64,000 bases of DNA. It comes from a virus. Both the position numbers and the translations under genes were made by a program. Position 1 is the first letter of the stretch; the number at the start of each line of letters is the position of its first letter. The notes under the pieces were generated by a model that did not search any database, was not told where the DNA came from, and worked only from the letters and a program-made list of their open reading frames with translations. The stretch covers positions 3,155-67,154 of the IMG/VR virus record IMGVR_UViG_3300046660_000239; one strand, written 5' to 3'. Shown here one piece after another: positions 1,238-58,331 of this stretch.

Positions 1238-1301
1238 AACGTCTCCTCTTAGCCGTGCGGTTGGTGGCCGCACGGCGTTGCTGTGGTGGCAGTTGGTGGT
1301 G

Positions 1302-1838
1302 TTAGGCGGCGCGGTGATATTCGCCGAAATTCTGTTCCGCCGCCGCAACGTATGCGGCATGAGCGTCTTCAGGCGTTTTGAACCGACCGAGATATTTCTG
1401 TTCTCCGTCAATCCATATTGACGAGACCCAGACGAAACTTCCGTCTCGGTTTTTCCTCCTCCTGGCGCCCTTCAATCCGCTCAAATTGTCGGATCGGTTC
1501 TTTCGGTTCATGTTGTTTTGGGAACGCGTTACATCGCGGAGGTTGAAAATTTTGTTGTTTGTTTCGTCGCCGTCGATGTGGTCGATATGGCCATCTGGCC
1601 ACCTACCATTGTGAAGCGCCCATACGATTCGGTGAACGGCCAGCTTTTCGCCCTTGATATGAACGGCGGCGTACTTCTTTGAGCCACCCCTAATCGCCGT
1701 TCCAGCAGCGCCTCCGATTTTTACTCGGCTCTGTGAAGAAGTCGGTTCCTTCCAAAACAATTCGCCCGTATCGCGATATCCAAGGCAGCGTTCTACGAGC
1801 TCGAACGTTGCGCGCTCCTCCGCAGGAGTGCCCATCAC
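1302..1838 (-). CDS. HNH homing endonuclease with AP2-like C-terminal domain
   Basis: HRIVW...IDHIDGDETNNKIFNLR (HNH_3 pattern); KYLGRFKTPEDAHAAY (AP2-like). Confidence 0.9.
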   Translation of the reverse strand: MMGTPAEERATFELVERCLGYRDTGELFWKEPTSSQSRVKIGGAAGTAIRGGSKKYAAVHIKGEKLAVHRIVWALHNGRWPDGHIDHIDGDETNNKIFNLRDVTRSQNNMNRKNRSDNLSGLKGARRRKNRDGSFVWVSSIWIDGEQKYLGRFKTPEDAHAAYVAAAEQNFGEYHRAA

Positions 1839-2128
1839 GCTGCTCCTTCCGTTGGTGTGTTCCGCTTCAGCGGACGACGCTTGGTGAAGTCGACCGGGAT
1901 GACGTTGTCATCCACGGGCTGCTTGGTGGCGGTCGGCGGCGTAGGCACGTCGTCATCATCGATGAGGTCAAGCTCCCATTCGTGGAACTGCAGAACCTCC
2001 AACGAAGGCGACACCCGGACGAGGACGATGCTTCCCATGAAGCCGATGACGATGCCGAAGACGTTGGTGTTCATCTTGTGCTCGACGACGTCGCCGATGC
2101 CGATGCAGTCACAATCGGTGCAGCTCAT
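1835..2128 (-). CDS. Hypothetical protein
   Basis: Stop/start overlaps with both neighbours. Confidence 0.7.
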   Translation of the reverse strand: MSCTDCDCIGIGDVVEHKMNTNVFGIVIGFMGSIVLVRVSPSLEVLQFHEWELDLIDDDDVPTPPTATKQPVDDNVIPVDFTKRRPLKRNTPTEGAA

Positions 2129-2472
2129 GCCGCCACCTGCAATTCAAGGCCGGCGACCAGAAGTTCGCGCGCCGACGGCTCGACCTCCGCAACGTCAAGA
2201 GTGGGGATGCGTTTGACAGACACGGGAACGACGCCACTCCAAGTGGAGCAGCCACCGTTGTGCGGCGTCATCTGGGTGGTAACGTTGGGATTATTGTCGT
2301 TTGCCGCCGAGACGGATGGTTTTGGAAAGTGGCCTGGGCCGAACTCTCTCCGTAGGCGCTGGTAAACGGTAATCGGCTTGAGGCGATATCTGGTCGCAAT
2401 GCTGGCGTTGCTTTCGCCGCTCAGTCTGCGCGCATGCATATCGGCCAGCATCTCGCTGGTAATGATTGTCAT
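2125..2472 (-). CDS. Hypothetical HTH-like protein, first gene of the leftward early operon
   Basis: ATG 2472 behind CACCACAGAGGAGAC; SNASIATRYRLKPITVYQRLRR looks like an HTH. Confidence 0.7.
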   Translation of the reverse strand: MTIITSEMLADMHARRLSGESNASIATRYRLKPITVYQRLRREFGPGHFPKPSVSAANDNNPNVTTQMTPHNGGCSTWSGVVPVSVKRIPTLDVAEVEPSARELLVAGLELQVAA

Positions 2473-2542
2473 ATTGTCTCCTCTGTGGTGATGTCGGCAA
2501 AACGGTGAACTTGCCAACCGACTGTCATAGTGTTATCGATTT

Positions 2543-2555
2543 ACAAATTTGTCAA
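2543..2555 (-). promoter_or_regulatory. ACAAATTTGT palindrome overlapping TTGACA (-35) of a leftward promoter
   Basis: One of nine exact copies of the 10-mer. Confidence 0.7.
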
Positions 2556-2570
2556 AGTGTAGCGGTGAAT

Positions 2571-55824: not shown

Positions 55825-55972
55825 ATTCTCTCCTCTTGTGGTGTCCCGCGCGTTGGTGGCGCGCCGGTGATTATTAGACTGTACATAAAGCGCTGTAATG
55901 TGCAGTTTGGTGGACAGTGGTCCATAAATGATACGTTGGCGCGTCATATGGGCCATTTATGACGCGTGAAGG

Positions 55973-56614
55973 TTACAGTGCAGCCCGCAGCAAGCCCGTA
56001 GCGGAAAGCCGTAGCCCCGCCGCGCTTGCGCGATGATGGACGGCATTTGCGGCCGCGCGGCGGCGGATCTCCGGACCAAGGCGCGGATCGTCCTTCGCCA
56101 TGACGTCGCAGTCAGCGGCTTGTTTGTCGTGCCACTGGGCGGCGAGATAGTAGGCGTTGGCGGTGGTTCGCTTGTCTTCGGCGACCGCCGCAATGATGCG
56201 GGCGGCCAGCAAGAACCTCCCGCATTTCTCCGGCCCACAATGGTCGATCTTTTTGACCGCGTCCTCGAAAGGAATGATCCAAGCGTCAGGCTTGCCGGCG
56301 TAGGTGTAGCCGCTGCCACCCGTGCGCCAGACGCCGTTTTCTGTCTGGATGTGTACCATAGAACCAGCCCACGACTTTGCGCGGACGCTATTCGGATAAA
56401 GGCGCAGGTATTTCTGCGTGATGAAGTCTGGACCGAAGAGGCGACTGACCGCTTTTTCGCTACAAAGTTTGGACAGTCCGCCGATGGCCTTTGTCTTGGT
56501 CGGGAAGACGCCGTCGACCATCTGGCTGGTCAGGGACTGCATCACTTCCACCCTCGACGCAAAATAGTGCCGAAAAAAGCAACGGCGTACATAACCGGCC
56601 AGAAGATCGGCCAA
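55973..56614 (-). CDS. Hypothetical protein (start probably near 56545)
   Basis: ORF in the operon. Confidence 0.6.
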   Translation of the reverse strand: MADLLAGYVRRCFFRHYFASRVEVMQSLTSQMVDGVFPTKTKAIGGLSKLCSEKAVSRLFGPDFITQKYLRLYPNSVRAKSWAGSMVHIQTENGVWRTGGSGYTYAGKPDAWIIPFEDAVKKIDHCGPEKCGRFLLAARIIAAVAEDKRTTANAYYLAAQWHDKQAADCDVMAKDDPRLGPEIRRRAAANAVHHRASAAGLRLSATGLLRAAL

Positions 56615-56766
56615 ATCACCACGCCGAGAAAGATCGATGTGAAGGTTAGGCCATCATCCAACGCCTCGTTGATATGGTGAAATGCCGTCATCGCGCCGGC
56701 GATGTAGAAGTAAAGAGCTAACCACGCCATCAAATCACCTCCGGCAAGTTGATGGGATAAGCCCAA
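56542..56766 (-). CDS. Small membrane protein
   Basis: Two hydrophobic segments, IWPIFWP. Confidence 0.6.
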   Translation of the reverse strand: MGLSHQLAGGDLMAWLALYFYIAGAMTAFHHINEALDDGLTFTSIFLGVVIWPIFWPVMYAVAFFGTILRRGWK

Positions 56767-57038
56767 TGTGTCGGCACATAGCCAGCATCATAAAGCGCAT
56801 CGTTCTGGACGCTTTGCCAGCGCAAAGGACCGCCGCGGGATGGGCGGAAGTCTTCGTCGATATATGCCAGTTCCAAGAACTGCCGGTGGGTGCGATAGCC
56901 ACTGCTACCGGTCACCATCAGCAATGTCTTCTGCGGCGGCTGGATATCAGAAATATCAAACCAAGCGACGGCCGGTCGATTGGCTGTTCGTGCGAGTTCT
57001 GCTTCCACCTTGGTTTCGAAATCATCATCCAAAATCAT
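56730..57038 (-). CDS. Hypothetical protein (DUF551-like)
   Basis: WFDISDIQPP...PTHW. Confidence 0.7.
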   Translation of the reverse strand: MILDDDFETKVEAELARTANRPAVAWFDISDIQPPQKTLLMVTGSSGYRTHRQFLELAYIDEDFRPSRGGPLRWQSVQNDALYDAGYVPTHWAYPINLPEVI

Positions 57039-57802
57039 GACGCCACCTTGCTCTCGACAATACGGAACCCCGGCACCTGCCGCACGCCGCCCCTGACGGC
57101 CTCATCAGCATTCCGCTGTGCCACGGCAAGCACCTCTTCCTTGGCGCGCGCCCATGTCCACTCCATAGCCGCGTCTTCGTCGACGAGTTCGGCTTTCCAG
57201 ATTGTACGCAACCCCGTGCCCACAGTCGCCGCCTTGTCCGCCCGCTTCGCGGTCTTCTCCAGCCGCTTAGCATCGGCCAGCAATTCCTCAGCGCTTTCAC
57301 GCGCCGCGAGGTTTCCGCTACTGGCACGCACTGCCTCATCGGCGGCACGGCGGGCATCTTCTGCTTCCTGCGCTATGCGGGCGGCATCCGCGGCCTTCTC
57401 TTGCGCAATCCGCGTGCGCCATGGCGTCAACAACGCCTGGCACGCCTCCTTGCCGAGAACGACCTTGCCCTTGCCGGCTTTTGTGTTGCCGATCAGCGGG
57501 TGGAACTTGGCCTGGATGGCTGTTATCTGGTCGTCGAGTGGCTTCTTTTCATCGACGCGCAGCTCTTCCGCGCGCTTGCCACACTCGTGAATGCGGTCAT
57601 GCAGTTCGGTGATGACGTTGGCCATGGCTTCGTCGGTGATGGGCTCGCCGTCGCAGAAATCCTTGGCGGTGTCGTATAGGTCGTCGAGTTCCTGGCGGAT
57701 GGCTTCGAAGGCCGAATTGTCGTTTGCGGGTGGTTGATTATGCCCGATGCCAACTTCACGGATCGCCTGCGGGTTGAATTCGCTGTGCGCCTGATTCATC
57801 AT
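57035..57802 (-). CDS. Hypothetical coiled-coil phage protein
   Basis: IGHNQPP...R.DEKKP...VPGFRI. Confidence 0.8.
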   Translation of the reverse strand: MMNQAHSEFNPQAIREVGIGHNQPPANDNSAFEAIRQELDDLYDTAKDFCDGEPITDEAMANVITELHDRIHECGKRAEELRVDEKKPLDDQITAIQAKFHPLIGNTKAGKGKVVLGKEACQALLTPWRTRIAQEKAADAARIAQEAEDARRAADEAVRASSGNLAARESAEELLADAKRLEKTAKRADKAATVGTGLRTIWKAELVDEDAAMEWTWARAKEEVLAVAQRNADEAVRGGVRQVPGFRIVESKVAS

Positions 57803-58287
57803 GCTGACCTCGCGAATTCGCCGTGGATATCATTTGCCGCTGCGACGTAAAGGGCGTGAGCCTCTTCAGGAGTTGAGCGGTTTCCGAGATGGATCTGCTT
57901 GCCGTTTACAGAGATCATCGCCTTGAATCTGTTGTGGTCTTTGTAGACGCCCTTAAACCCGGTGCTGTTGCGACCGGTCTTGTTAGCCTGATTCTGAGAA
58001 TTCGTTGCCTCACGAAGATTCGCCCATGCGTTGTTCGCCTTGTCCAAATCGCGATGGTCGACCGCACCAACGGGCCATTCGCCAGTCATGTAGAGCCATG
58101 CAAGGCGATGGGCTTTGCGGCCTCTTTTGCCGTCGACGCTGAAGCGGATATAGCCGCTACCGTTGTCAGCCCCAGCCACATCGCCGACCTTGACGCCGTG
58201 CCCCCCTACCAGCCACGTGAACACGCCAGTTGCCGGGTCGTAGTTAAGTAATTCCTTAAGCCGCTGTTGCGTTAGCTCGCTCATCAT
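57799..58287 (-). CDS. HNH homing endonuclease with AP2-like domain
   Basis: LNYDPATGVFTW...AHRLAWLYMTG...VDH....NNAWANLREAT. Confidence 0.92.
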   Translation of the reverse strand: MMSELTQQRLKELLNYDPATGVFTWLVGGHGVKVGDVAGADNGSGYIRFSVDGKRGRKAHRLAWLYMTGEWPVGAVDHRDLDKANNAWANLREATNSQNQANKTGRNSTGFKGVYKDHNRFKAMISVNGKQIHLGNRSTPEEAHALYVAAANDIHGEFARSA

Positions 58288-58331
58288 CAGTCTCCTCTTG
58301 TGGTGTGGTGGTTGCGCTGGTGGGGCGCTAA

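Follow-up and report, generated by a model that had tools for sequence, protein, structure and literature searches.

Hairpins with a recurrent loop in the window

The window, that is, the whole stretch of DNA analysed here, comprises 64,000 nucleotides and corresponds to bases 3155–67154 of the 67,154-bp IMG/VR virus record IMGVR_UViG_3300046660_000239 (genome label G000), which has direct terminal repeats. Comparison with PHROGs recognized siphovirus genes in it (terminase, portal, tape measure, tail fibres, primase, helicase and methyltransferases). Most of the genes lie on the minus strand, and a plus-strand block holds two repressor genes together with lysogeny genes. The nearest named relatives are Rhizobium phage RHph_TM3_3_14B (hereafter TM3) and Sinorhizobium phage NV1.1.1 (NV), with terminases about 67–68% identical; the IMG/VR record G007 is Rhizobium phage 16-3 (NC_011103), identical over all 60,195 bases. 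The subject of this analysis is a small stem–loop that recurs in the 5′ leaders of genes of this phage group and displays the same seven-nucleotide loop, CCACCAA or a close variant, on stems of different sequence. This leader hairpin is real, conserved and phage-specific. Six such hairpins had been listed in the original prediction, which was made from the letters of the window, and all six are found where it placed them; two more were added, H5, a clear member that the prediction had missed, and H6, which is doubtful.

H1, 1252–1276, minus strand: GCCGTGCGG-CCACCAA-CCGCACGGC, 9-bp stem
H2, 13987–14011, minus strand: TGCCGCCGA-CCACCAA-TCGGCGGCA, 9-bp stem
H3, 18938–18954, minus strand: ACTAG-CCACCAA-CTAGT, 5-bp stem
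H4, 55848–55864, minus strand: GCGCG-CCACCAA-CGCGC, 5-bp stem
H5, 58830–58846, minus strand: CGCGC-CTACCAA-GCGCG, 5-bp stem
Class II variant, 58314–58328, minus strand: GCGC-CCCACCA-GCGC, 4-bp stem
Plus-strand variant, 4596–4612, plus strand: CAGCC-GCACCAT-GGCTG, in the plus-strand gene block
H6 (doubtful), 3198–3216, minus strand: GCATGT-CTACCAA-ACATGC, no minus-strand gene downstream

In the usual layout the hairpin is followed by a CACCAC-type box, an AGGAG Shine–Dalgarno (SD) sequence and a start codon. The exceptions are H1, in which the CACCAC boxes lie upstream of the hairpin and the SD begins 3 nt past the stem, and H6, which heads no gene. H1 is situated between the gene for an HNH/AP2 endonuclease (1302–1835) and an open reading frame (ORF) of 130 aa (845–1237). 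Downstream of H2 come ACCACUACCACCACAG-AGGAGAC and the start of a 134-aa ORF (13555–13959), downstream of H4 GGGACACCACAAGAGGAGA and the start of a DNA methyltransferase gene (54520–55824), downstream of H5 AAUGCACCACGUAGAGGAGA and the start of an NT5C-like nucleotidase gene (58332–58805), and downstream of the class II variant AACCACCACACCACAAGAGGAGAC and the start of an HNH/AP2 endonuclease gene (57799–58287). H3 begins 31 nt past a TTGACAAATTTGTA element that in turn comes after an intrinsic terminator, and so stands at about +1 of the predicted transcript; H5 begins 33 nt past the same kind of element. H3 heads a 23-aa ORF (18888–18817) and a trypsin-like protease operon. This small ORF (MSRYFHA..., minus strand) separates H3 from the protease gene, and its start is kept in TM3 and in a further relative, G001.

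The plus-strand variant lies directly past the repressor C gene, which is the place of PL in the annotated phage 16-3, and ahead of GGCACCACUUGAGGAGAC and a 65-aa ORF (4635–4832); the same hairpin occupies the same place in TM3 and G001. In the predicted fold of 4585–4633 (plus strand) it caps a longer stem that pairs UCUCCUCA with the SD UGAGGAGA. According to this model, the SD of the PL-equivalent leader would be locked in read-through RNA from the repressor gene and free in RNA started at PL.

H6 was not counted as evidence, because on the plus strand there is an overlap with the spacer and the −10 region of the predicted promoter of an immunity-region small RNA (TTGACA-N18-TAGACA; see below) and because the stems found at its place in relatives are imperfect. 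That H6 might be the 5′ hairpin of this RNA, with a complementary UUGGUAG loop, was set aside once the promoters of at least seven phages had been aligned: the −10 elements (TAGACA, TAGGGA, TAACCA, TAGATA) lie over the H6 loop and the start lies past the hairpin. Another candidate, H7 (52815–52837, loop TCACCAA), was left out of the count, being inside an ORF with no SD after it. The minimum-free-energy fold in context includes seven of the eight window hairpins, all except H5, and several of the local z-scores are unremarkable. As for a possible identity with intrinsic terminators, a T run follows none of the eight, and none of their ranges is among 28 terminator-like sites in positions 1–20000 of the window, and a true terminator precedes H3. 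No hairpin of the family is found in the structural module of the window.

Conservation and anatomy in related phages

The comparison set comprised 13 genomes, namely G000, TM3, NV and ten whole IMG/VR records. Ten of the 13 were selected by means of a pattern that includes CCACCAA and CACCAC and hence carry at least one copy of the heptamer by construction; the scan of IMG/VR (CCACCAA, then CACCAC, then AGGAG) gave at least 131 matches in at least 119 loci. For the census of loops a hairpin was defined by a stem of at least 5 bp and a 7-nt loop, and for the study of anatomy by a stem of at least 4 bp with G–U pairs allowed. Leader context means an SD and a start codon no more than 60 nt downstream of the hairpin.

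The recurrence of the loop is not a matter of chance. CCACCAA occurs 19 times in the window as compared with 6.6 ± 2.6 times in shuffled sequences, and among the 115 hairpins of G000 four share the CCACCAA loop and two the CTACCAA loop. In 200 dinucleotide shuffles the largest number of hairpins sharing one loop was one (152 shuffles), two (47) or three (1), so that four identical loops on unrelated stems never arose and a chance origin is rejected. The census of all 13 genomes (1308 hairpins) likewise places CCACCAA first, with 30 hairpins, ahead of CACCAAC (7, the same hairpins in a shifted register), CTCACCA (7), CTACCAA (6), GCACCAT (4) and CGACCAA (4). A control that is independent of how the genomes were picked is provided by the 35 letter permutations of the heptamer: CCACCAA occurs 227 times and is a loop in 30 of these cases, against 0 of 333 for ACCACCA and 2 of 253 for CACCACA. 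Commoner heptamers of the same composition are thus loops 0–2 times, which disposes of a compositional artefact; what recurs as a loop is therefore one particular word in one particular register rather than a by-product of A/C richness.

The hairpins, whose conservation the original prediction had left to be checked, are conserved in the related phages. TM3 contains four CCACCAA hairpins in syntenic positions, two of them with the stems of H1 and H2. The H1 hairpin is identical in TM3 and G001, and in NV and 16-3 it takes the form GCCGTGCGC-C(A/T)ACCAA-GCGCACGGC, a compensatory variant whose closing pair is altered on both sides relative to GCCGTGCGG. The H2 copy of TM3 is identical but heads a different, MazG-like gene. 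For H3 the orthologous stems ACTGG/CCAGT (TM3), GCTGG/CCAGT (G001) and CTGG/CCAG (G004) again show compensatory changes. Orthologues of H4 with a CCGCGCG stem are found in TM3, NV, G001 and 16-3, and those of H5 (GCGC-CTACCAA-GCGC) in TM3 and G001. The IMG/VR matches listed include at least 25 in which a stem of 4 bp or more encloses the heptamer, as compared with an expectation that we estimate at about 3; about 22 of these 25, judged by eye, share the leader layout on further stems.

With the wider definition the 13 genomes hold 110 hairpins with loops of the family, 79 of them in leader context (3–9 per genome), and these 79 carry 60 different stems. Their loops are CCACCAA (40), CTACCAA (11), CTCACCA (11, related to the CCCACCA loop of the window), CGACCAA (6), CAACCAA (4), GCACCAT (4), CCCACCA (2) and CGCACCA (1). 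The association with leaders is close, since 40 of the 43 CCACCAA hairpins are found there. Stems measure 4–11 bp and the loop is always 7 nt long (C-N-ACCAA or C-N-CACCA). In 60 loop-aligned hairpins of class I, position 2 of the loop is C in 39, T in 11, G in 6 and A in 4, the other positions being fixed by the search pattern C-N-ACCAA. The closing pair in these 60 is mostly G–C, G and T are scarce in the flanks, and the end of the hairpin lies 2–36 nt from the SD and 13–49 nt from the start codon (median about 27 nt). The same alignment revealed no fixed upstream promoter box: no upstream position exceeds 0.45 bit, and there is a general A/C richness only. H3, H5 and, by eye, about a dozen hairpins of relatives start some 30 nt past a TTGACAAATTTGTA element; others are intercistronic. 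By-eye inspection of the leaders did not support the idea that those devoid of a hairpin compensate with a second linear box.

Orientation follows the coding strand. The minority-strand hairpins of G000, TM3, NV, G001 and 16-3 sit within gene blocks of the same strand, and in 16-3 the predicted downstream starts coincide with annotated coding-sequence starts in seven cases out of seven. The genes concerned in 16-3 are p029, p036 (protease), p046, p061, p075, p086 (sigma factor) and p096 (methyltransferase). The original prediction had taken the element for a selected RNA structure, and this is upheld by the constant loop on differing stems, the compensatory changes in orthologues and the orientation with the coding strand.

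Some of the hairpins are found where genes are joined. In TM3, GGCG-C(C/A)ACCAA-CGCC overlaps the final codons of the exonuclease gene, ahead of the sigma-factor gene, and the same hairpin, read through to the stop codon, recurs in G001, G004, G014 and G016. Furthermore, one hairpin with its SD heads different N-terminal coding sequences in G000, TM3, G001, NV, 16-3 and G004; the hairpin would therefore lie at mosaic junctions.

The immunity region: a candidate small RNA and other features

The original prediction had also pointed to a candidate small RNA (sRNA) with GUGGUG loops, and such an RNA is present as a conserved predicted gene in all 13 genomes, in 11 by motif and in G008 and G016 by covariance model (71 and 74 bits).

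Candidate sRNA, 3219–3418, plus strand: between the two repressor genes, from a TTGACA element to a terminator, 5′ end predicted

This region of about 200 nt lies on the strand of the repressor genes and lacks a convincing ORF. It comprises a hairpin with a GUGGU loop (GUCACU-GUGGU-GGUGAU), an anti-SD sequence GUCUCCUC, an apical hairpin CGG-GUGGUG-CCG and a terminator, in a predicted fold that is shared with TM3 and NV. In an alignment of 14 sequences the GUGGU of the first loop and the apical GUGGUG are invariant columns, and the anti-SD has a CUCC core. The counterpart in 16-3 (NC_011103, 36867–37026, minus strand) carries no annotation.

The sRNA and the leaders seem to have changed together. 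Leaders of the type ACACGAGGAG, found in G017 and G010, match their own sRNA (CUCCUCGUGU) over a mean of 9.8 and 10.8 nt and the sRNAs of other phages over 6.2–8.3 nt, whereas the leaders of the other phages (GAGGAGAC) match their own type (GUCUCCUC) over 7–8 nt and the G017/G010 sRNA over 5.7–6.4 nt; this switch represents one evolutionary event, observed in 6 and 4 leaders. Judged by eye, the change extends to the linear box, which goes from UCACCACCAC to UACCACC in step with loop 1 of the sRNA. Pairing of the candidate sRNA with the leaders of these phages is reasonably supported, because its anti-SD flank matches the leaders of its own phage.

A scan of genome contigs with the sRNA pattern returned mostly chance matches in high-GC genomes; 5 of 120 loci resembled the phage group by the presence of operator, leaders and hairpins. 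In the five prophage-bearing genomes found in this way a search was made for C-N-ACCAA, then CACCAC, then AGGAG. In four Agrobacterium genomes (5–6 Mb) all 17 matches, representing 14 distinct sites, fall within one span of at most 54 kb each; the fifth genome has no match to loop, CACCAC and AGGAG, and a reversed control pattern gave 0–3 matches. Judged by these matches, the element is private to the phage, occurring in the four Agrobacterium genomes only inside the prophage.

Several other features of the window deserve mention. Ten TTGACAAATTTGT(A) elements consist of a palindrome, ACAAATTTGT, fused to a −35-like box:

TTGACAAATTTGT(A) elements, minus strand: 2555, 10589, 18990, 44682, 46746, 47587 and 58885
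TTGACAAATTTGT(A) elements, plus strand: 3184, 44667 and 52567

The hexamer 18 nt past them is not TATAAT-like (AAGGTC, AGGGTG or AATAGT), and that of the sRNA promoter is of the TAGACA type. Downstream of the Pr-equivalent promoter, a basic ORF of 24 aa (3583–3509, minus strand; 10 of 24 residues K or R) has its stop codon on the 5′ arm of an intrinsic terminator and looks like a translation-coupled attenuator. Similar basic ORFs of 19–48 aa, often ending in PP, occur in 8 of the 13 genomes. A conserved mini-ORF of 10 codons (MRN...; 3449–3417, minus strand) has a strong SD, with a weak ACACCAA hairpin ahead of it; G001 and G004 carry the mini-ORF as well, and in TM3 the MRN motif is found at its place inside a longer, 26-aa ORF. 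Two small ORFs of the sigma-70 family (regions 2 and 4) lie at 61479–61982 and 62776–63273 on the minus strand, and 16-3 is also annotated with two. A 58-aa ORF (48645–48821, minus strand), adjoining a 68-aa helix-turn-helix protein, has a sub-threshold match to the Pfam family of ribosome modulation factor RMF (25.2 bits, cut-off 27.9). The only Rfam match above cut-off is int-alpA in the structural region (37689–37753, minus strand; 35.9 bits against a gathering score of 35.8). Finally, other leaders (46690–46720, minus strand; 10532–10566) have A/C-rich boxes in larger loops (GCAATC-ACCAACCACCAC-GATTGC) or an SD locked in a stem with a CACC-rich loop.

What the loop may serve

These observations may be accommodated by the following scheme. 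The hairpin would be a cis-acting RNA element and the first module of a three-part, phage-private translation leader, made up of a GC-rich stem of any sequence (4–11 bp) with the 7-nt loop C-N-ACCAA or C-N-CACCA, a linear box of A and C only (CACCAC) and an extended SD (GAGGAGAC). The cassette heads early, non-structural genes of 16-3-like temperate rhizobiophages, at predicted 5′ ends of transcripts as well as between cistrons. Its loop would be a structurally displayed copy of the CA box and serve as docking site for one of the conserved GUGGU(G) loops of the immunity sRNA, which would also cover the linear box and the SD, so that translation of all genes with this leader would be locked, be it in the lysogen or upon superinfection. 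When the sRNA is missing, initiation would be helped by the A/C boxes, which are unstructured, and the stem would shield the 5′ end or the junction between cistrons. That the loop-displayed CA box is a docking site for the immunity sRNA is our preferred though tentative reading, to which we would give a probability of roughly 40%; the contact between hairpin loop and sRNA is one that we infer from complementarity, and all effects on translation or stability are likewise deduced.

By analogy, the element appears to work most like the targets of the antisense RNAs of phage immunity. In phages P1 and P7 (c4) and in the satellite P4 (CI), the immunity region encodes antisense RNAs with loops complementary to repeated sites near the ribosome-binding site of a lytic leader. 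The likeness lies in a candidate immunity-region sRNA and short repeated leader sites near the ribosome-binding site, its complementarity being clear for the linear CACCAC box and the SD. The present case would differ in that some 15–20 leaders across the genome are concerned instead of one operon, and in that the putative target includes a hairpin of which the loop, and not the stem, is conserved. Rfam C4 gave no match over the whole window at the gathering score or at E ≤ 10. A second parallel is offered by GcvB, which is reported to silence translation-enhancing ACA/CA elements upstream of the SD with no strict spacing (PMC3879156). Here, too, an A/C-rich element just upstream of the SD is loosely spaced (2–36 nt) and would face a G/U-rich region of an sRNA; GcvB acts on a host regulon through linear sites, whereas the present putative enhancer is phage-private and has one copy displayed in a heptaloop. 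A third parallel comes from Cluster K mycobacteriophages, in which a conserved asymmetric SD-containing motif (SAS) precedes 11–19 non-structural genes, and about half of these genes have an extra upstream inverted repeat (ESAS) with a suspected role in translation (PMC3203893). An SD-containing motif with an upstream inverted repeat ahead of non-structural genes is thus common to both systems, but ESAS keeps its 17-bp arms and varies the spacer, whereas here 60 stems carry one family of 7-nt loops (PMC3203893). A conserved loop between freely varying arms speaks for recognition of a loop in RNA and not of a site in duplex DNA.

Several observations weigh against docking of the sRNA on the loop. 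Complementarity with loop 1 of the sRNA amounts to 6 nt (CCACCA:UGGUGG) and with the near-invariant loop 2 to 5 nt, and the part common to all loop variants is ACCA:UGGU only. Position 2 of the loop varies freely, and the conserved A6 and A7 have no complement in the sRNA; such a tolerant position together with unpaired A residues fits a protein or a folded loop better than an antisense partner. No loop-to-loop covariation with the sRNA was seen across phage subgroups, and the co-occurrence of hairpin and sRNA, being confined to one group of related phages, is not an independent one. Interruptions of the stems comprise 8 G–U and 7 A–C pairs and so give no RNA-specific signal. A weaker objection is that nested co-folding pairs the sRNA with the linear CACCAC box in seven of seven leaders and with the hairpin loop in none, this method being unable to represent kissing (loop–loop) contacts.

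Alternatively, a phage protein, or a host protein acting on the phage only, may read the fixed loop on any stem and thereby act on the translation, antitermination or processing of the downstream genes. Hairpins recognized by proteins (coat proteins, IRP, lambda N) typically combine a constant loop, tolerant at one position, with stems of variable sequence, and the fixed loop with its tolerant second position fits this pattern. The absence of the element from host chromosomes outside the prophage and the terminators between the Pr-equivalent promoter and the early genes would also be in keeping with it. On the other hand, an RNA-binding domain was recognized in none of 60 window ORFs (10 compared with PHROGs and 50 with Pfam), many small ORFs having no match at all, and simple occlusion of the ribosome is unlikely as the hairpins overlap neither SD nor AUG. 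The original prediction had drawn a comparison with lambda nut/boxB, and this did not hold up. There is some likeness, in that a small hairpin of early transcripts stands in C-rich, G-poor flanks. The boxB loop of lambda is a GNRA-like pentaloop on a stem of about 5 bp, as compared with a heptaloop on 4–11 bp here, and instead of one promoter-proximal site per operon there are 3–9 sites per genome, many of them intercistronic or overlapping ORF ends. No boxA-like linear motif is found at a fixed short distance upstream in the 60 loop-aligned hairpins, and no arginine-rich antiterminator family of the N type among the 50 window ORFs compared with Pfam. An arginine-rich peptide as N-like partner is not supported either: the only basic ORFs are those of 19–48 aa in 8 of the 13 genomes, and the one near the immunity region ends over a terminator and resembles an attenuator leader peptide. 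On balance, a protein operator seems to us unlikely.

The hairpin could also act independently of the sRNA, the stem stabilizing the 5′ end or the intercistronic region against an exonuclease or RNase E and the A/C loop acting as an enhancer or as a standby contact for the 30S subunit or its protein S1. The placing of H3, H5 and about a dozen relatives close to +1 of predicted transcripts, 31–33 nt past the −35 element TTGACAAATTTGTA in the case of H3 and H5, would suit such a device. So would the depletion of G and U in the flanks and the median of about 27 nt between hairpin end and start codon, which is near the 5′ edge of a 30S footprint. Moreover, ACA/CA motifs are reported to boost enterobacterial translation irrespective of exact spacing (PMC3879156). 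A stabilizer, however, needs no fixed loop, and yet the loop is the sole conserved part; nor do host genes have the element. Pairing with 16S rRNA is unlikely to supply the missing partner: Agrobacterium 16S rRNA (G022) does contain UUGGUGG (218–224), the exact complement of the loop, and UGGUGGUGA (1184–1192), the complement of the linear box, but both words are presumably inside helices, by homology to the E. coli secondary structure, and the complementarity is probably a coincidence. The UUGGUGG word lies opposite a CUACCAA strand in the same helix. We therefore hold an sRNA-independent device to be doubtful.

It is tempting to go beyond the docking of the immunity sRNA and to imagine the heptaloop and CACCAC as a private translation code, marking some 15–20 phage mRNAs for a dedicated reader (a ribosome platform or a phage factor), with one sRNA silencing the set by mimicking the complementary surface and the portable hairpin–SD cassette serving as a seam for gene swaps. 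This idea is quite speculative and would have to be rated as rather improbable. Very improbable, lastly, is a function in DNA, in which a hairpin or cruciform would be a signal for a phage sigma factor or a DNA enzyme, or a recombination seam for gene exchange: the two sigma-70-family ORFs, annotated likewise in 16-3, the apparent mosaic junctions and a G–U versus A–C count that does not favour RNA are compatible with it, but no upstream box is kept at a constant distance (maximum 0.45 bit), several hairpins already stand directly after a promoter-like element, the CACCAC boxes upstream of H1 would be lost from any transcript begun at the hairpin, orientation tracks the gene strand, and a recombination seam, itself compatible with a function in RNA, leaves the fixed loop unexplained.

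The leader hairpin is undescribed in the literature searched and has no Rfam family. Searches for phage CCACCAA stem–loops or heptaloops, for RHph_TM3_3_14B and for hairpins of 16-3 returned no description, and Rfam gave nothing at the hairpins at the gathering score or at E ≤ 10. In the available text of a preprint on BaGTA antitermination, its supplementary tables aside, the words 'hairpin' and 'stem-loop' do not appear, and the passages in question deal with a DNA site at the promoter.

For decades phage 16-3 has served as a model among temperate phages, and both the hairpins and the matching sRNA are unannotated in its record and absent from Rfam. If one sRNA does lock a leader shared by at least a dozen genes, immunity in this group would be post-transcriptional and genome-wide, beyond the single operon of P1 and P4. 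The cassette of any stem, fixed loop, CA box and strong SD may provide a compact and portable expression signal for engineering in Rhizobium and Agrobacterium, and it would at the same time mark sites of gene exchange between phages.

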